Of a DNA stretch of 40,519 bases, positions 1 to 40,519 are shown piece by piece (the stretch's first letter is position 1; the number at the start of each line of letters is the position of its first letter). This DNA is from a virus. Its lineage: Duplodnaviria; Heunggongvirae; Uroviricota; Caudoviricetes. A model generated the notes under the pieces. The model did not search any database. It saw only the letters and a list, made by a program, of their open reading frames with translations, and was not told the DNA's origin. The position numbers and the translations under genes are program-made. Location: IMG/VR virus record IMGVR_UViG_2529293139_000011. One strand, given 5' to 3'.

Positions 1-933
1 ATGGACAACGACAAAATTGATCAACACAGCGACGAAATTGAAGTTGAGAGCGAAGAAAAAGAGCGCGGCAAAAAAATAGAAATAGATGAAGACCGACTCC
101 CCTCCCGGGCGATGGCAATTCATGAGCATATCCGCCAGGATGGTGAAAAAGAGCTGGAACGCGACGCAATGGCGCTACTGTGGTCAGCCATTGCGGCGGG
201 TCTGTCGATGGGCGCTTCGTTACTGGCAAAAGGGATATTTCAAGTCGAACTGGAAGGTGTGCCGGGCAGCTTCTTGCTGGAGAATCTCGGTTATACCTTT
301 GGTTTTATTATCGTCATTATGGCCCGCCAGCAATTATTTACCGAAAATACCGTGACTGCGGTACTACCCGTCATGCAAAAACCGACAATGAGCAACGTCG
401 GCTTACTTATACGGTTATGGGGCGTCGTGCTGCTGGGTAATATTCTCGGGACAGGTATTGCGGCGTGGGCATTTGAATATATGCCTATCTTCAATGAAGA
501 AACTCGCGATGCATTTGTCAAAATCGGCATGGATGTGATGAAGAACACCCCCAGCGAGATGTTTGCCAACGCGATCATTTCCGGCTGGCTGATCGCCACT
601 ATGGTTTGGATGTTTCCTGCAGCGGGTGCGGCAAAGATTGTGGTGATTATATTGATGACCTGGCTTATTGCCCTGGGTGACACCACCCATATCGTGGTCG
701 GTTCTGTTGAAATCCTCTATCTGGTGTTTAACGGTACGCTGCACTGGAGCGATTTCATCTGGCCCTTCGCACTACCTACTTTAGCGGGGAACATCTGCGG
801 CGGCACCTTTATCTTCGCGTTAATGAGTCATGCACAGATTCGTAACGACATGAGCAATAAGCGTAAAGCAGAAGCACGCCAAAAAGCAGAACGTGCGGAA
901 AACATTAAGAAAAATTATAAAAACCCGGCATAA
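1..933 (+). CDS. yfdC: Inner membrane protein YfdC (formate/nitrite transporter family); host gene flanking the prophage
   Basis: 310-aa ORF starting at ATG at position 1; product recognised as E. coli YfdC with multiple hydrophobic segments; sits immediately upstream of argW as in E. coli K-12. Confidence 0.85.
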   Translation: MDNDKIDQHSDEIEVESEEKERGKKIEIDEDRLPSRAMAIHEHIRQDGEKELERDAMALLWSAIAAGLSMGASLLAKGIFQVELEGVPGSFLLENLGYTFGFIIVIMARQQLFTENTVTAVLPVMQKPTMSNVGLLIRLWGVVLLGNILGTGIAAWAFEYMPIFNEETRDAFVKIGMDVMKNTPSEMFANAIISGWLIATMVWMFPAAGAAKIVVIILMTWLIALGDTTHIVVGSVEILYLVFNGTLHWSDFIWPFALPTLAGNICGGTFIFALMSHAQIRNDMSNKRKAEARQKAERAENIKKNYKNPA

Positions 934-2555: not shown

Positions 2556-2918
2556 ATGTTAAAGCTATTTGCAAAGTACACCTCGATTGGTGTGCTGAAC
2601 ACACTTATACACTGGGTGGTTTTTGGTGTATGTATCTATGCCGCGCATACAAACCAGGCTCTTGCAAACTTCGCAGGTTTCGTTGTGGCTGTGAGCTTTA
2701 GCTTCTTCGCGAATGCAAAATTCACATTCAAGGCATCGACTACAACGATGCGCTACATGTTATATGTCGGGTTCATGGGAACACTGAGTGCTACTGTTGG
2801 ATGGGCTGCTGATAGATGTTCACTTCCTCCAATTGTCACTCTTGTCACCTTCTCCGCCATCAGCCTGGTGTGCGGTTTCGTCTATTCAAAGTTCATTGTC
2901 TTTAGGGATGCGAAATGA
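2556..2918 (+). CDS. gtrA: Bactoprenol-linked glucose translocase (flippase) GtrA
   Basis: 120-aa small membrane protein ([25 protein letters not shown]...), first gene of a gtr operon; its stop overlaps the gtrB start. Confidence 0.85.
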
Positions 2919-3841
2919 AGATATCTCTTGTAGTTCCTGTCTTCAATGAAGAAGAAACGATACCAATTTTCTATAAAGCGGTACGTGAATTCGAAGAGTT
3001 GAAGCCATATGAAGTGGAAATTGTTTTCATAAATGACGGAAGCAAAGACGCTACGGAGTCAATCATTAACGCTCTGGCTGTTTCAGATCCTCTAGTGGTT
3101 CCGCTGTCATTTACACGAAACTTTGGTAAAGAACCAGCATTGTTTGCAGGGTTAGACCATGCAACAGGAGATGCTGTAATTCCAATTGATGTTGACCTGC
3201 AAGATCCGATTGAGGTTATTCCCCATCTGATTGAAAAGTGGCGGGCAGGCGCTGATATGGTGCTTGCTAAGCGATCAGACCGCTCAACCGATGGTCGTCT
3301 GAAGCGAAAAACTGCTGAGTGGTTCTATAAGCTCCACAACAAAATAAGCAATCCAAAGATCGAGGAAAATGTTGGTGATTTCCGGTTAATGAACCGTGAA
3401 GTTGTCGAAAATATTAAGCTCATGCAAGAACGCAACCTATTCATGAAGGGCGTACTGAGTTGGGTTGGAGGAAAGACTGATGTTGTAGAATATGTTCGCG
3501 CCGAACGCGTGGCGGGCAGCACTAAATTCAATGGCTGGAAATTGTGGAATCTAGCGCTTGAAGGGATAACAAGCTTTTCTACTTTCCCACTTCGTATGTG
3601 GACATATATCGGATTTGTTGTTGCAGCAGCTTCATTCTTCTATGGAGCATGGATGATTGCAGATAAAATACTCTGGGGAAATGAAGTGCGTGGTTACCCA
3701 TCGCTACTTGTCTCCGTACTGTTTTTAGGTGGAATTCAATTAATTGGAATAGGCGTGCTCGGGGAGTACATAGGCAGAATTTATATAGAGGTTAAGAATA
3801 GACCTCGTTATATCATAAAGGGCAATAAAAATGATATTTAG
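2915..3841 (+). CDS. gtrB: Bactoprenol glucosyltransferase GtrB (GT2 family)
   Basis: 308-aa [23 protein letters not shown]... with GT2 DXD-type motifs and C-terminal TM helices; overlaps gtrA and the following gene. Confidence 0.85.
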
Positions 3842-5510
3842 GAACAGACATACTCTTTTATCTATATTCGCTATTTTCATGTTGGTATTTCTTGTTGCAT
3901 TAAATACACCAATGCACTCTGATGACTATAGTTATTACTCACGAGGATTGGGGCTTGATGCGCACATTGCAAATTATATGCACTGGAGTGGGAGGATTGT
4001 AGCAGATTACGTATCTACCGGGATGTTGTCGATTGAGGATCATACCCTTAAGGCCCTCGTCAACTCTATAGGTGTAACATCACTTATTGTTCTCATTGCT
4101 GCAATACCTTCTCAATTATGTAAAGTTGAAATCAAACCATTAGTATTAATTGTTGTTTTTGCTTTATATTGGTCATGTAACCCAAATCTAGGACAGAACT
4201 CGTTCTGGGTTGTAGGAAGCGCGAATTACGCCTGGACTACACTATTTGTTTTATGTTTCATCTATTATTTTTTGAAGTGGATTGAAAACCAAAATACGAC
4301 TAAGATAGTTTCGTTATTTATTCTTGGTTTAATAGCAGGCTGCTCAAACGAAAATACCGCTGTAACTATAGCTCCATTGACAGTTGTTGTTGCAATCTCT
4401 TTATTTTACTTTAAAAAAATAAGATGGCAATATGCTTTATTACCAACGATCGGTGTCATTATTGGTTCTGTGACAATTATTCTTTCACCAGGAAACGCAG
4501 CAAGGGCGAAAAATATTGCGTTCGTTGATTGGTATGCAATGCCGTTAGGTGAGAGGCTAATAGAGCACTTTACTCATAGGTTTTGGTTTGCTTTCACATC
4601 CGCATGGCTTGTAATTGGGCTGCTGGTTATCTGTTCAATTGCATCATATGTTTTTTATCGAAGAAAACTACTTTCATTTTCTAATGCTTCATTATTTGCA
4701 TCAATCTCGTTTTTTGGGTGCTTCCTGCTTGCTAATGCCGCATTGGCTGGTGCTCCATACACTCCTCCGCGATCTTTTAGCATAGGGTTCTGTTTCCTTT
4801 TACTTTGCTTCTCCTGCCTTTTCACTTGGATAAATCAACAGGATGGCAAGATAAAAAGCACTTTATCTTACGCTATTTTATTAGTTTCACTAATTAATTT
4901 CATTGGCTCATATTATTTCGTTTATTCCGCTTATAAAAGAACAACGATCCAGCAGACACTTAGGGAGTCGTCGATTAGAGATGGTAGGAGCAATGGTTTG
5001 AAATCTATTTCTATCCCTGATTATTTCTTTACGCATCTTAAGAATTATAACGATAGATATGATAGATTTCATAATGAGGGAAGCTATGGCAGATACTATG
5101 GTATATCCAAAGCGCCATTACAAAAAGCAACCTTTGACTATTCTGGCATAGCATATAAACCAGTTTACAGTAAAGATGTGCCTCTATACGAGCGCGATAA
5201 TATCAAGTCTATTTTCATGTCACCGCAACAACCATTCATCAGTGGGACATTGATACTTGAGATTTCTAACAATATTGATGGGATTTTATCTCGTGATGGT
5301 GGCGTGAAAATCTTCTTACATATTTTAAAATCAGATGGAAGCATCGTTAACAAGGACTTTTTCCCAACTACTATAGAGCTTAATGGTAGATTCTATGCTG
5401 GAGTTGATCTTTCTGGAGTTGATATAAATGACATTAATAGCCTATTGATTGGTACATTCAATATTCATACGCGTCATCGATATACACAAACACAGATAAA
5501 GATTAATTAA
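3831..5510 (+). CDS. Serotype-specific O-antigen glucosyltransferase, GtrC-like (polytopic membrane N-terminal part plus a soluble C-terminal domain)
   Basis: 559-aa ORF in the third position of the gtr operon; strongly hydrophobic N-terminal ~380 aa, AT-rich codon usage typical of acquired gtrC genes; this family is highly variable so exact specificity is unknown. Confidence 0.65.
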
Positions 5511-17278: not shown

Positions 17279-18163
17279 TTATTCGATTTTTGCGCCGGGG
17301 CATAATTTGTTGAATTCGTCTTGTTTCGCATCAGCACCGCCACCACGTACTTCCGGCTCTGGCTTGATGGCTTTCTTTGGTTTTGGAGCAAGGCTTACCT
17401 GTTTGCTAATCTGCCCCAAGAGGAATGCTGCGCGAATTGGATCTGTCTCAGCGGCTACACGCTGGCGTAATTGCTGGCTCTTACCTAAGCCATAGGCGAG
17501 TAGTTCAGAGCCTTCGTCTGCACAGTGAATGATGATTTCCTGCTGAATTGGTGGTAGCTCACTAAGAACAATGGCTTCCATTTCCTGATAATCTTTCACA
17601 GGAAGTTTGGCTGCCCGTTGTTTATGCGCTTCTACCCTTTGCTGGAAACGCTGCTGGTATTCCTGTTGCTGACGTAGTTTTTGTTGCTGCTGCTGTTCGA
17701 CACGGCCTTTTTTCTCATGCCAATCAGTCAATGCCTGTTCAAACGCCTGTTCGTCATAATCACACGACTCAAGAGTCGGTTTTGGTGGAATAGCGTCTGG
17801 TTGTGGTTGCTGATGTTCCGCAGGCTTGGCTAATGCTTCCTCAAGCTGGCGGCGCAACTCACGGTTTTCTTTCTGTGTTTCTTTGAAGCCTTTGCGAAGA
17901 TCCTTCACCCATTGCGGTGCAGGTTGCCCGTCAATGTGATCATCATCGTCAGCGTTAAGCTGAATTTCTTCATCACCAATACGCAAGGCGTAATCTTCTG
18001 GTGTCTCTTCGGTTTTTTCAGGCTCAGTTGCCACCTCTTTACCGTTGTCATCCTGGCTTTCATTTTCAGGCTGTGACTCTGTTTGGATGATGGTTTCTTC
18101 TGCATTTTCCTGTGTTTCAGACAGGTCAATAACCTGACCGTCGATGATCAGTTCGTTTTCCAT
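17279..18163 (-). CDS. Scaffolding protein
   Basis: 294-aa acidic, helical, Gln/Glu-rich ORF between the portal and coat genes. Confidence 0.75.
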   Translation of the reverse strand: MENELIIDGQVIDLSETQENAEETIIQTESQPENESQDDNGKEVATEPEKTEETPEDYALRIGDEEIQLNADDDDHIDGQPAPQWVKDLRKGFKETQKENRELRRQLEEALAKPAEHQQPQPDAIPPKPTLESCDYDEQAFEQALTDWHEKKGRVEQQQQQKLRQQQEYQQRFQQRVEAHKQRAAKLPVKDYQEMEAIVLSELPPIQQEIIIHCADEGSELLAYGLGKSQQLRQRVAAETDPIRAAFLLGQISKQVSLAPKPKKAIKPEPEVRGGGADAKQDEFNKLCPGAKIE

Positions 18164-18176
18164 TGATTACTCCTGG

Positions 18177-20303
18177 TTAACTCGGCATTAAGTCTGCCGG
18201 TGACTGTGGTGGTGACTGGAATTGCTGTTGTTGTGACTCGGCGACATCTTTCAGCAGGCGTATTGCCTCCATCACTGCTTTGTCATCGATGTTTCTGGCT
18301 TGAGCCAATTTATAGACAGTGTTTGCCTGACTCTCCATCGCATCCTGCTGGGCAGTAAATGCTTTGATTTGAGTTTGAGCAGTTTCGTTAGTTGCTTTTT
18401 GCGCTTCTGCCTGCGCTGCTACCATTTGCGCCTGAGCGAGAACCATTTCAGGATTTGGCTGGCTTTGTGCTGCCATTTGCGCCTGTTGAACAATCTGCTG
18501 CTCTTTCTCATTGCGTGGTTTTGCAATACCAGATATCAGCAGTTGGTTGCGGTTGTACTCTTTGAAGTCATCAAGGCCTTCGCCATCGATATTGTCCAGA
18601 ATAATACCCTGAATTGCCGGGCGCATTGGGTCTGTTGGAAGCATAGAGCTAAGGACATTTGTCAGTACAGAAACCGTTGCATCACGTCGTGCTGTGTAGC
18701 TTGGTCCAACATCAACCGTCACATCGTATCGACCGACAGAAAGGTCATTTAACGCAACAACAGCCCCTGTTTGCCTGTCAACAACCTGTGCGCTCAGGAC
18801 AGCGATATCATCACTTCCATCTTCGTTAACGATGCGCACTTCACGTTCTGAACCGTACACTTCACGCGCCATTGACAGCCATACTTCACCAGCGCGTTTA
18901 AGACTTTTCGCCATATTGTCCAGATAGATAAACGAAGCCATATCTGCTCTGTTCATCAAGTTGTTAACCGTTTCCTGAGCAATATTACTTGGCATCTGCT
19001 GCATGGCCTGACTGCCGCCTGTAACCTCCTGAATATCAGCACTGGTTTGCTGTAGTAATGCAGCCAATGCCTGATTCATAACCGCAGGCTGTGTATATCC
19101 TGCCGGGGTAGCTCCAGCGATAATGTTGCCAGATTTATCTCTCACTTCGCGCAACGGCAAGAACGCTGGGCGTTTCTTGTTGCGAGCCTCCCAGTGCTTC
19201 TCAAGTCCACGAATTTGCTCCATGCCAACTATAGGGATCTGACCGGGGTCTTGTGCTGCAGTATCAGCCAGCATTGAAACCTGAAGGTTGTACAAACGCT
19301 GTGGATCCATTGCTTTTGCAATGTGCCCTTCGACACGCTCAATGTCATCAATGAACCAGCGTTTTCCATAAACCGGGATGAGGGGGATATGCTCACCAGG
19401 AATACGTCGAGGTTTCTCAAGGAAACCATCACCATCCACTACGGATACATACACACGACGGCGCTTCACTGAGCGCCTTGCCACTTCCTGAAATCCAGCT
19501 ATTGCCAGTTCATCTTCAATATCTTCAACCTGATCACTGTCGTATGTTGCAATCTCTCCAGTGATTGGATGTCGATAACTGATGACGTCAACAGACTCTT
19601 TACGAACTTCGTAATACTTCGCTATGTAAATAACATCTGCATCAAACCAGTCATATTCCCAACTGGTCATAGACGTTACATCCAAAGAAGCAGGAGGTTT
19701 CTTTCCGTATTCAGCCTCATATTTTTCAGGTGACAACGAATACATGCAGAACGCCCACAACGCGTCAGATTTGTCGTACTTCTTAGCGTCAGGGTCAAAC
19801 CACACAGAGCGCGACGGGTCGTATATTGGTTCAATAGCAATGCGCTGACGATCGTCCATGGGGTCGTATTCATTGACCAGCATCGACGTCAAACGGAAGC
19901 AACCGAAACCACCAGTAGCAGCGTCGTCAAATGCATTATCGCAAGCCTCACCGCCATCAGTTTCTTCGTAGTCAGCACGGAACAGACCATTTAATTTATT
20001 GGCTAACTCTTCGCTTGCCTCTCTGTCACCAGGACGAAACTTAACGGTGATTCTGTTATTGCGGTATTCTGCAATGATGCGGTTAAGTTCAGTTGCTACC
20101 TTATTGATTTCAAACTTAGGATACTTCTCGAACTGCTCATCAAGCTTAGTCCCAGCCGCCGTTGCTCCTTCCCATTGACCTCCGGGGACACGAGCAAACC
20201 TCGTAGCTTCAATGCACTTTTCGCGCACTTCCTGCTGTGGAGAATAGGCGCGGTCAAACCTGAGCATGATCCGCTCATGTTTTTTCTCTAATGTCTCTGC
20301 CAT
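18177..20303 (-). CDS. Portal protein
   Basis: ORF 18177-20375; start moved to the ATG at 20303 (MAETLEKKHERIMLRFDRAYSPQ...) just after the terminase stop, giving 708 aa; aligns with P22-type portal proteins (e.g. KRRRVY, GEHIPLIPVYG) and has a long C-terminal helical barrel. Confidence 0.85.
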   Translation of the reverse strand: MAETLEKKHERIMLRFDRAYSPQQEVREKCIEATRFARVPGGQWEGATAAGTKLDEQFEKYPKFEINKVATELNRIIAEYRNNRITVKFRPGDREASEELANKLNGLFRADYEETDGGEACDNAFDDAATGGFGCFRLTSMLVNEYDPMDDRQRIAIEPIYDPSRSVWFDPDAKKYDKSDALWAFCMYSLSPEKYEAEYGKKPPASLDVTSMTSWEYDWFDADVIYIAKYYEVRKESVDVISYRHPITGEIATYDSDQVEDIEDELAIAGFQEVARRSVKRRRVYVSVVDGDGFLEKPRRIPGEHIPLIPVYGKRWFIDDIERVEGHIAKAMDPQRLYNLQVSMLADTAAQDPGQIPIVGMEQIRGLEKHWEARNKKRPAFLPLREVRDKSGNIIAGATPAGYTQPAVMNQALAALLQQTSADIQEVTGGSQAMQQMPSNIAQETVNNLMNRADMASFIYLDNMAKSLKRAGEVWLSMAREVYGSEREVRIVNEDGSDDIAVLSAQVVDRQTGAVVALNDLSVGRYDVTVDVGPSYTARRDATVSVLTNVLSSMLPTDPMRPAIQGIILDNIDGEGLDDFKEYNRNQLLISGIAKPRNEKEQQIVQQAQMAAQSQPNPEMVLAQAQMVAAQAEAQKATNETAQTQIKAFTAQQDAMESQANTVYKLAQARNIDDKAVMEAIRLLKDVAESQQQQFQSPPQSPADLMPS

Positions 20304-22703: not shown

Positions 22704-23183
22704 TTAAATGATTTGCCAGTCTTCAGCCATCAGGTCGCCAATGGATGGAACCCATGTAGCAAGGAGGTTCTGTGAGTTTTTCAATACAAGCGTGTCATTG
22801 AAAGTTGGCTCGCCAACATATTCGCCAAAGCCATAACCCAACGCAGACGCTAATTTTTCCCCTTTCACGAGATAAACAAACTGGTCTTTCCCATTCCATC
22901 CTGCCCGCTGCAAACTTTTGCCCTGTTTTAACGCTTCCATGGCAAGGCCGAAACTTAGTCCTGATACCGGACGATAAGCCTTTTCGAATACTTCTTTTGG
23001 ACTCCAGCTAACGTAGCCATCAAAGCGATCGGTGTTAGGTTTTCCGCCATCCAGATATTCAACCAGATAGCCTTCGTCCTCGCCGTTTTCTCCGGCAGGA
23101 AGCTGCCAGCCACGAAAATCGTTATATGCCTGTCTCGTCATCGGAAAGGCGTTAATCAGTTTTACGCCAATATGCTGGGTCAT
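22704..23183 (-). CDS. DUF2829-domain protein (C-terminal half resembles the family that includes Thoeris anti-defence Tad2) with an N-terminal extension
   Basis: 159-aa ORF; the C-terminal region EALKQGKSLQRAGWNGK...WVPSIGDLMAEDWQII matches the DUF2829 pattern as I recall it (K.G....R..W, W.PS..DL.AEDW); lies between the lysis cassette and terminase. Confidence 0.5.
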   Translation of the reverse strand: MTQHIGVKLINAFPMTRQAYNDFRGWQLPAGENGEDEGYLVEYLDGGKPNTDRFDGYVSWSPKEVFEKAYRPVSGLSFGLAMEALKQGKSLQRAGWNGKDQFVYLVKGEKLASALGYGFGEYVGEPTFNDTLVLKNSQNLLATWVPSIGDLMAEDWQII

Positions 23184-33778: not shown

Positions 33779-33943
33779 ATGCTCAAGAAAGTCAAACGCC
33801 GACTTTACAAAGAAGGTAGATATTCATGCCAATTGCCAAAATGCGACACAACAAAATGGAGTGTCGATGATTGGTGTAACTGGATAGATAGATACGGAAC
33901 TTGGTGGGAACGTATTTATTTTCGCGGCAAACCACTTATTTGA
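33779..33943 (+). CDS. Small Cys/Trp-rich hypothetical protein downstream of N
   Basis: 54-aa ORF MLKKVKRRLYKEGRYSCQLPKCDTTKWSVDDWCNWIDRYGTWWERIYFRGKPLI, translated by hand (below the ORF-track size cut-off). Confidence 0.3.
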   Translation: MLKKVKRRLYKEGRYSCQLPKCDTTKWSVDDWCNWIDRYGTWWERIYFRGKPLI

Positions 33944-38145: not shown

Positions 38146-38824
38146 TTATCAGGCACTGCGTGAAGCGGCAGAGAAAGCCGGTGAAGATAAGTGGCAGGCT
38201 AAAAAAATAAATGGTGATTTTTTCGTTATTCGTCACGGTAGTTATACAAGACAGCATGGCTACACATCGTATCAACCCATTGCGGAGATTGATTGTAAGT
38301 CAGTCCGGGATTTTGTTGCCAAGGCTAATCCGGCTACCGTGCTTGCGCTTCTTGATGAACTGGAAGCTCAAAGCAAACGCATTGCAGAGCTGGAGAAAAA
38401 AGCTGCACCAGATTCGTTTGGCATCATCGGTGAAAATATTCGAACACAGGATAATCGAATAACGTCAGACCCTATGTTTTGTGTGTATCAAAAGCGCGAA
38501 ATCGTTGTTGATGCTGATTATGACTATGACCGGATTGTCTGGGTTGATGAAGATGGTAATGAAGCCAATAAACGCCAAAGTCGTCGTCTCGAACTACTTC
38601 ACGAAAACTTTCGAGAGCCACCAGAAAAATGGCGGCGCGTTGCTGTGAAAGATATTGATGAATTCGTTACCTGCTGTTTCACCGAACAGGGTTGTAAATA
38701 CTACCTAGCAGCCAATGGTCACAATCTTCGCTTGCCATTTATATATGTAAAAAGCGGTTTCAGGAACGCTGAATATATCGGCATAAGAAACTGGCTTGCT
38801 GGCATTCGCATCAAAGGAGAGTGA
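38132..38824 (+). CDS. Ead/Ea22-like protein
   Basis: 230-aa ORF (GTG start after AGGAGG); the N-terminal helical segment NPATVLALLDELEAQSKRIAELEKK is typical of Ea22-like prophage proteins as I recall them. Confidence 0.55.
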   Translation: MSKIDYQALREAAEKAGEDKWQAKKINGDFFVIRHGSYTRQHGYTSYQPIAEIDCKSVRDFVAKANPATVLALLDELEAQSKRIAELEKKAAPDSFGIIGENIRTQDNRITSDPMFCVYQKREIVVDADYDYDRIVWVDEDGNEANKRQSRRLELLHENFREPPEKWRRVAVKDIDEFVTCCFTEQGCKYYLAANGHNLRLPFIYVKSGFRNAEYIGIRNWLAGIRIKGE

Positions 38825-38825
38825 T

Positions 38826-39068
38826 ATGGCAACTTTGACAAAAAAGGAACAGGCATGGTTGAGCGAATTACAGAACGTTCTTGATCGCTGCCCGTCACCG
38901 AAAAAATTGGTTTTTACACCATTGGCGATAAAAGCATTTACCTGTATGACCTGCGCCGCATGGATGAAATCATGGAGGCTCTTGATAATCGTTCGTCGAT
39001 GGATTGGTGTGTTGCTGTTCATGATATGAATGCAGGGTTTGATGAAAAGATTTTGTTCCCCTCATCAG
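38826..39068 (+). pseudogene. Possible frameshifted small gene (frame change at or near the A6 tract at 38901-38906)
   Basis: Frame 0 from ATG 38826 gives MATLTKKEQAWLSELQNVLDRCPSPKK... then an implausible tail; the -1 frame from the A-run gives protein-like ...IGFYTIGDKSIYLYDLRRMDEIMEALDNRSSMDWCVAVHDMNAGFDEKILFPSSVESTAG ending at 39068. Confidence 0.35.
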
Positions 39069-39098
39069 TTGAAAGCACTGCGGGTTAAGGAGTAACAC

Positions 39099-39695
39099 AT
39101 GACCACTATTACCAAAGAACGTATTGAATTGTTCATTAAAAATCCGCTTGAAAACGGACTTACCCGTGGCGAACAAATGGAACTGGCACGAATTGCTCTG
39201 GCATCGCTGCAACGCGAACAGATTCGCCACGAGCATGCCAAATGGTCTGACTCCACATTTGGCTGCGTTGGCCCCATTGGTCCGCTGAAACATCTCTCAA
39301 AAGAGGCACTGGAAGCCGCAGCCGAACCAGACGATCTTAGCGAGTGGGCTGATATGCAGTTTCTGTTGTGGGATGCACAGCGCCGTGCTGGCATCAGCGA
39401 TGCTGAAATTACCGCTGCTATGGAAGATAAATTGAAGATCAACATGGAGCGCCAGTGGCCTGAGCCAAAAGATGGTGAGCCTCGCTTGCACATTAAAGAA
39501 CCCGGCAACTCTCCGGTAATTCCGGATGGTTGGGTTATGGTGCCGAAGGAGTTAACCCCGGAAATGATGAGAGCCGTTCAGATTAGAAGTGAGCTTGGAG
39601 GGTATGCCACTTCCAATCTATCTGGTGCATACAATATGTTTTCTGAGTTCTGGAATGTTGCTGTCTCAGCTGCGCCTAAGGTGGATGATTTATGA
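39099..39695 (+). CDS. DUF550/DUF551-type prophage protein (putative MazG-like nucleotide pyrophosphohydrolase domain)
   Basis: 198-aa ORF; family assignment is from memory of lambdoid prophage annotations and is tentative. Confidence 0.45.
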   Translation: MTTITKERIELFIKNPLENGLTRGEQMELARIALASLQREQIRHEHAKWSDSTFGCVGPIGPLKHLSKEALEAAAEPDDLSEWADMQFLLWDAQRRAGISDAEITAAMEDKLKINMERQWPEPKDGEPRLHIKEPGNSPVIPDGWVMVPKELTPEMMRAVQIRSELGGYATSNLSGAYNMFSEFWNVAVSAAPKVDDL

Positions 39696-40094: not shown

Positions 40095-40262
40095 ATGCAC
40101 TTCCGAGTCACAGGTGAATGGAATGGAGAACCATTCAACAGAGTTATCGAAGCAGAGGACATCAACGACTGCTATAACCACTGGATGATATGGGCGCAGA
40201 TAGCGCATGCAGACGTAACCAATATTCGAATTGAAGAACTGAAAGAACACCAAGCCGCCTGA
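40095..40262 (+). CDS. Small hypothetical protein
   Basis: 55-aa ORF MHFRVTGEWNGEPFNRVIEAEDINDCYNHWMIWAQIAHADVTNIRIEELKEHQAA with GGAG 7 nt upstream, followed by a terminator. Confidence 0.4.
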   Translation: MHFRVTGEWNGEPFNRVIEAEDINDCYNHWMIWAQIAHADVTNIRIEELKEHQAA

Positions 40263-40276
40263 TGGCGGTTTTTATT
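40254..40276 (+). terminator. Intrinsic terminator (GCCGCC-tgat-GGCGG followed by TTTTTATT)
   Basis: GC hairpin plus T-run overlapping the stop of the preceding small ORF, upstream of torI. Confidence 0.6.
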
Positions 40277-40318: not shown

Positions 40319-40519
40319 ATGCAACACGAACTACAGCCTGATTCACTGGTTGATTTGAAATTCATCATGGCCGATACTGGCTTCGGTAAAACCTTCATCT
40401 ACGACCGGATTAAGTCCGGCGACCTGCCAAAAGCCAAAGTTATCCACGGACGAGCAAGATGGTTATATCGTGACCATTGTGAATTCAAAAATAAGCTCTT
40501 AAGCCGCGCTAATGGGTAA
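40319..40519 (+). CDS. torI: TorI-type excisionase / recombination directionality factor
   Basis: 66-aa ORF MQHELQPDSLVDLKFIMADTGFGKTFIYDRIKSGDLPKAKVIHGRARWLYRDHCEFKNKLLSRANG recognised as E. coli TorI (AlpA/Xis-like winged helix); the window ends at its stop codon. Confidence 0.85.
   Translation: MQHELQPDSLVDLKFIMADTGFGKTFIYDRIKSGDLPKAKVIHGRARWLYRDHCEFKNKLLSRANG

Follow-up and report, generated by a model that had tools for sequence, protein, structure and literature searches.

The segment from 38826 to 39088 of the window, by which we mean the whole 40,519-nt stretch of DNA analysed here, is a single conserved gene with a lesion of exactly one base in a run of adenines. The missing base is most likely a homopolymer-length sequencing artefact in an old draft assembly, rather than a frameshift of biological origin. 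A preliminary description of the site had offered three causes, and the evidence favours the sequencing error among them because only homopolymer-length differences were found relative to otherwise identical sequences, a second assembly, seemingly of the same reads, is filled with homopolymer errors, and the run of six adenines (A6) is absent from complete E. coli genomes. The main value of this result is quality control: what looks like a pseudogene or a frameshift site ought not to be taken for biology. We suggest annotating the gene as intact (87 aa) or, until the strain is resequenced, as a frameshifted CDS.

The start codon (ATG, 38826-38828) and the A-run were found in the sequence exactly where the preliminary description had placed them, and both protein-like halves, frame 0 before the run and the -1 frame after it, could be read directly (Table 1). 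Frame 0 encodes MATLTKKEQAWLSELQNVLDRCPSPKK followed by 40 out-of-frame residues (LVFTPLAIKAFTCMTC...FMI) and terminates at 39027-39029; these last 40 residues of the 67-aa product do not resemble any homolog. The -1 frame opens just 5′ of the A-run, reads ...KIGFYTIGDKSIYLYDLRRMDEIMEALDNRSSMDWCVAVHDMNAGFDEKILFPSSVESTAG and is terminated by a TAA codon at 39086-39088. The stop of this frame had been assigned to 39068, where in fact a GTT (Val) codon begins, and of the proposed single gene of about 85 aa the single gene holds whereas the length does not, the restored product having 87 aa.

Table 1. Features of the window discussed in the text
Feature	Position	Strand	Remarks
Host formate/nitrite-transporter gene	1-933		start of window
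tRNA-Arg(CCU)	1009-1083
Integrase	1209-2402
Three ORFs in gtrA/B/C position	2556-5510		assigned by position and size relative to phage HF4s only
159-aa ORF, Tad2-like (Thoeris anti-defence 2) domain	22704-23183	-	PF11195, E=1.8e-21; between lysis and terminase genes
Ead/Ea22-like protein, 230 aa	38132-38824	+	upstream neighbour; PF13935, E=4.8e-19
Shine-Dalgarno AGGAG	38815-38819	+	6 nt 5′ of ATG; read from sequence
Frameshifted copy of conserved 264-nt, 87-aa gene (PHROG 1714)	38826-39088	+	263 nt here; aligned to intact CDSs of VSe13, 689R5 and PhiR49_2
Frame-0 ORF as written, 67 aa	38826-39029	+	27 native and 40 out-of-frame residues
A6 homopolymer, site of 1-nt deficit	38901-38906	+	A7 in intact homologs; codes for invariant K27 and neighbouring K26 of RCPSPKKIGFYTIGD
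-1 frame segment, native I28-G87 and TAA	38906-39088	+	one residue differs from VSe13 residues 28-87
DUF550, dATP/dGTP pyrophosphohydrolase domain protein, 198 aa	39099-39695	+	downstream neighbour; PF04447, E=3.3e-42
T5 run, intergenic, upstream of xis	40269-40273	+	window shorter than 11 of 14 near-identical loci, GCA_000812765.1 included

Joining the two halves yielded a protein that matches the PHROG 1714 profile over its full length (E=1.2e-50, residues 1-87 on 1-87 of 87) and is 98.9% identical to a single 87-aa CDS of Salmonella phage VSe13; the pattern is therefore no chance resemblance. No Pfam family matched the repaired protein. The core motif of PHROG 1714, RCPSPKKIGFYTIGD, is present in the window in split form, with RCPSPKK in frame 0 and IGFYTIGD in frame -1, and the C-terminal motif FPS.VESTAG is present in the -1 frame product. 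In a megablast search of positions 38700-39200 against GenBank phages, the matching segments always exceeded the query by one base. VSe13 and the Escherichia phages vB_EcoS-689R5 and PhiR49_2 each carry one annotated 264-nt CDS ("hypothetical protein") with the translation MATLTKKEQAWLSELQNVLDRCPSPKKIGFYTIGD...VESTAG, and the sole frame-changing difference in the alignment is the A-run, with seven adenines (A7) in these three phages and six in the window. The earlier suggestion of one gene cut by a 1-nt indel in an A homopolymer is thus borne out by the intact homologs, which have A7 and one 264-nt ORF. A single uninterrupted ORF of about 82-88 codons, as is found in PHROG 1714, is lacking in the window, where frame 0 ends at 39029 after 67 codons. 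The frameshift is located after codon 27, inside the most conserved motif of the family, and the 67-aa product as written would therefore be devoid of almost all conserved residues. No second lesion was detected in the 60 codons 3′ of the A-run, so that the lesion must be either very recent or not real.

The two overlapping frames could also be read as two small genes overlapping by design, one of 67 aa (38826-39029) and one of 42 aa (38960-39088). Both ORFs do exist mechanically, and the 42-aa product has been called as a gene in 46 blocks from the assembly collection; however, among the ten places listed for it eight are genes cut by a contig end, and the two internal ones come from a draft with deletions in two A-runs (ADUQ01000085.1) and from a contig in which a nonsense change occurs (L122). 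The 67-aa product, whose last 40 residues are without a homolog, was not on record anywhere in the assembly collection by exact look-up with either start codon, and neither was a 77-aa frame-0 product. In addition, the joined sequence matches the 87-aa family from end to end, and the ORFs of the homologs, which come from Salmonella, Klebsiella, Serratia, Aeromonas and Vibrio phages, are always single and about 82-88 codons long. Homologs with two ORFs in the same arrangement, which the preliminary description had named as evidence against a disrupted gene, were looked for and not encountered. The homolog survey refutes the two-gene reading, to which we assign a vanishingly small probability.

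Alternatively, A6 might be real and the 87-aa protein be synthesized at a low level, either through -1 ribosomal slippage of tRNA-Lys on AAA AAA or through insertion of an additional A by RNA polymerase. The native ...SPKKIGFY... would be regained exactly if the ribosome slipped by -1 on the second AAA or if the mRNA contained one more A, the Lys codons are shift-prone (E. coli has a single tRNA-Lys), and compensatory low-level frameshifting on mononucleotide runs has been documented in other genes (PMC5009743). Moreover, the site shares with the -1 frameshifting of dnaX and IS elements (A_AAA_AAG) an A-run decoded by tRNA-Lys and a -1 shift that joins the native halves. In contrast to these systems, the phase of the run is wrong and AAG is missing: the zero frame is CCG AAA AAA TTG, which gives G_AAA_AAA and no in-phase slippery heptamer X_XXY_YYZ, as had been noted in the preliminary description. 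The review of Atkins et al. states that frameshifting in E. coli occurs far more readily on A_AAA_AAG than on A_AAA_AAA (PMC5009743). The window further differs from them in having neither an upstream SD-like nor a downstream structured stimulator. No hairpin or pseudoknot was evident in the 80 nt after the run (-15.9 kcal/mol compared to a shuffle mean of -16.4, z=0.16), and no Rfam family matched at the site. Transcriptional slippage of high efficiency has been reported for runs of nine A or T (PMC5009743), compared to six adenines in the window and seven in the homologs. The two-frame layout is also not conserved, since 115 of 118 other copies are A7 and in frame and the divergent homologs are single ORFs that hold both halves in one frame. 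In distant homologs the A-run is not conserved at the nucleotide level; the K-K position, encoded by AAG AAA in HMD-P1, AAA AAG in phage 19-1-2 and GGG AAA in Otaku, is conserved as protein and not as an A-run. Trace read-through at A6 is chemically possible, and nothing indicates selection for it. Expression of the 87-aa protein by slippage on a real A6 therefore appears extremely improbable, and for programmed or compensatory frameshifting the chance is at best equally slight. Were it nevertheless true, the site would represent a "savior indel" lowering, and not abolishing, the expression of an early prophage gene that is possibly toxic to the host, an outcome that we regard as very improbable as well.

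Allele frequencies of the run were obtained from IMG/VR with an IUPAC pattern allowing 5-9 bases between conserved flanks, which yielded 113 contig stretches with 114 copies; together with four copies from GenBank phage records, 118 copies besides that of the window were counted. A7 was present in 115 of these, and A6 (vB_EcoM-813R1), A8 and AGAAAAA in one copy each. The A8 and AGAAAAA copies are the IMG/VR contigs L088 and L091; A8 likewise produces a frameshift, and AGAAAAA remains in frame (K to R). The A-run of the window is shorter than in all 27 loci with at least 97% identity (27/27). When genome contigs were scanned with the pattern, the only matches were three contigs that look like contaminants, from MAGs labelled Segatella and Collinsella; the gap in each of them is 7 bases, which is compatible with A7.

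Of the 5426 complete E. coli genomes in RefSeq, 979 (~18%) carry the gene. Among the 60 matches listed from complete E. coli genomes every copy is 264 bp long and annotated, and the best listed match is 99.6% identical, the difference being a one-base gap only. Complete E. coli genomes were further screened with two 70-nt A6 probes, one for each common flank variant, applying a threshold of 99% identity. The A6 allele with either common flank was not detected at ≥99% identity in the 983 records (1172 places) covered, and real slippage at the A-run must therefore be rare. With the 60 listed copies all at 264 bp and A6 missing from the 983 records, the behaviour of a phase-variable (contingency) locus was not observed.

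Elsewhere, A6 was found only in the phage record vB_EcoM-813R1 and in the draft contig ADUQ01000085.1 (GCA_000188835.2). Both copies are also one base short in the second A-run of the gene, and they look like further homopolymer artefacts of the same kind. In these two records (ON470617.2, about 1527-1801, and ADUQ01000085.1, 2868-3129, respectively) the gene is unannotated or a 42-aa stub. Several database variants that are truncated or extended (P0023, P0102, P0103 and others) were considered as products of a frameshift in the A-run and rejected, as they represent recombination or insertion junctions. In P0023, a 76-aa variant with a wide occurrence in Shigella sonnei (832 contigs), the first 22 residues are swapped for an unrelated N-terminus (MVVSAIASTPH-PSPKKIGFY...), which probably reflects a recombination or insertion junction within the gene.

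Look-ups of the exact proteins encoded next to the gene led to scaffold GL871772.1 of the draft assembly GCA_000190815.1, with which the window shares 100% identity over 4888 nt and 21413 nt. Logan contigs of run SRR024130 contain the same prophage, the same host junction and the same A6, and SRR024130 is probably the read set of the window's own strain. Over 4889 + 13334 nt (18.2 kb) these contigs show no substitution relative to the window, but seven runs differ in length by one base, and in the Logan assembly some of these differences interrupt the portal and gp10-like genes; the data of this strain are therefore error-prone at homopolymers, a property seen in the SRR024130 contigs themselves, for which we infer the BioSample link. 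The A6 allele of the window is private to GCA_000190815.1 and its probable read set. A literature search on the assembly and run accessions returned no match.

The assembly of another strain, GCA_000812765.1 (L141), showed no substitution relative to the window over 2187 nt and differed from it in homopolymer length only. The only two differences are A7 instead of A6 at the site analysed here and T6 instead of T5 at 40269-40273, the window being shorter both times. At the T5 run, too, the assembly of the window has probably undercalled a homopolymer.

These data also bear on a real and very recent deletion from A7 to A6 by replication slippage, which would have inactivated a dispensable prophage gene in one strain. 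Mononucleotide runs are hot spots of replication slippage, and homopolymers being genuine mutational hot spots counts against an artefact; the accessory ea region, to which the gene belongs, is dispensable in P22-type phages. Furthermore, A6 is common to the NCBI assembly and the Logan contig of SRR024130, so that the read consensus is A6, which on a platform accurate for 7-mers would point to a real deletion, and the remainder of the prophage looks intact, so that the assembly is not grossly error-ridden. Nevertheless, the agreement of the two assemblies carries no independent weight if both were built from the same reads, and the probable read set demonstrably miscalls homopolymers. In addition, both differences from the otherwise identical 2.2-kb sequence are homopolymer contractions without any substitution, and the lack of A6 in the complete E. 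coli genomes argues that slippage at the run is rare. Taking both sides together, we consider a real deletion unlikely, and equally doubtful that the gene is a young pseudogene encoding a 67-aa product with a junk tail. Even if real, the deletion would be an unremarkable case of a prophage losing an accessory gene that it does not need.

According to the favoured explanation by a homopolymer artefact, the true sequence would contain seven adenines at the site (CCG AAA AAA ATT, P-K-K-I), and the reads would miscall homopolymer lengths in a pyrosequencing-type manner, leading to six adenines in the draft. The lost base would then move the written frame to -1 past codon 27 and create the two overlapping half-ORFs. 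Consensus errors of flow-based (pyrosequencing-type) or nanopore sequencing have the same features, namely a one-base change in a run of at least six without accompanying substitutions, an allele that is private to one draft and absent from finished genomes, and many more such changes in another assembly that was apparently made from the same reads. The likeness differs in one respect, as it is drawn from the error pattern and not from platform metadata of GCA_000190815.1 or SRR024130; we further infer that the A6 call itself is one such read-set error and no real mutation.

A tblastn screen using ORFs from the loci collected beforehand revealed no other convincing split gene in the ~31-32 kb covered by related loci. 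The NCBI consensus is therefore mostly sound and its residual errors are rare, which has to be weighed against an artefact. Four flags raised for split genes were rejected: at 18000 the split scaffold gene lies in the HF4s record itself, at 20280 an intergenic run is located just before the portal start, at 33900 the indel cluster is found in one subject only, and at 40260 an intergenic T-run gave a spurious antisense ORF match. In HF4s (MT833387.1, 3987-4870) the scaffold protein is annotated as two CDSs compared to one intact 294-aa ORF in the window (17279-18163, minus strand). The two differ by a single T within a T-run (window about 18018), and the HF4s record likely contains a frameshift here, caused by an error or by mutation.

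The window spans a complete P22/Sf6-like prophage with its ends cut at the borders of genes, and the gene analysed here is an early-left (ea region) gene of this prophage, which is integrated at the argW tRNA gene. The stop codon of the Ead/Ea22-like gene (38822-38824) ends one base before the ATG, and homologs are equally tightly coupled. Anti-RecBCD protein 2, DUF7446 and Ead/Ea22-like genes are found upstream, and genes for DUF550, a Lar-like protein and Xis downstream; such neighbours are typical for the distal early-left (ea) region of P22-like and lambdoid phages. The xis gene is located at the far end of the window (40319-40519). Since int and xis lie at opposite ends of the prophage, attP is placed between them. 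In L135 and L140, which extend past the window, genes for a LysR regulator and for a GntP permease follow.

The repaired gene shares with members of PHROG 1714, such as ST64T gp10 (NP_720284.1) and the VSe13 protein (QOI68478.1), its length, the invariant residues and the place between Ead/Ea22-like and DUF550/DUF551 (eaA-like) genes. An alignment of 35 homologs revealed C22, P23, S24, P25, K27, G29, T32, Y41, D42, R44, F78 and G87 to be invariant. The AlphaFold2 model shows a confident small alpha/beta fold (pLDDT 85.7) with predicted helices at residues 6-20, 43-54 and 61-67 and strands at 28-32, 37-42 and 71-77, and no significant structural neighbour of the model was found in the PDB. The intact product is presumably a small soluble alpha/beta protein acting as a dispensable early accessory factor, putatively host-directed, as suggested by its position among dispensable early accessory genes.

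Besides lambdoid and P22-like prophages, several groups of lytic phages carry members of the family. It is distributed among P22-like, lambdoid, Chi-like, Avunavirus, Guernseyvirinae, Klebsiella, Aeromonas and Vibrio phages. PHROG 1714 is thus widespread, strongly conserved and confidently folded, without an assigned function or structural relative, which is a mildly interesting by-product of this analysis. Around 90 copies of the 87-aa gene are located on E. coli plasmids (e.g., NZ_CP035876.1, NZ_CP029365.1 and NZ_CP019075.1), those listed being roughly 89-121 kb in size and possibly P1-like phage-plasmids. As vB_EcoM-813R1, which also carries a copy, is classified as a Punavirus, the gene appears to move between lambdoid prophages and phage-plasmids.
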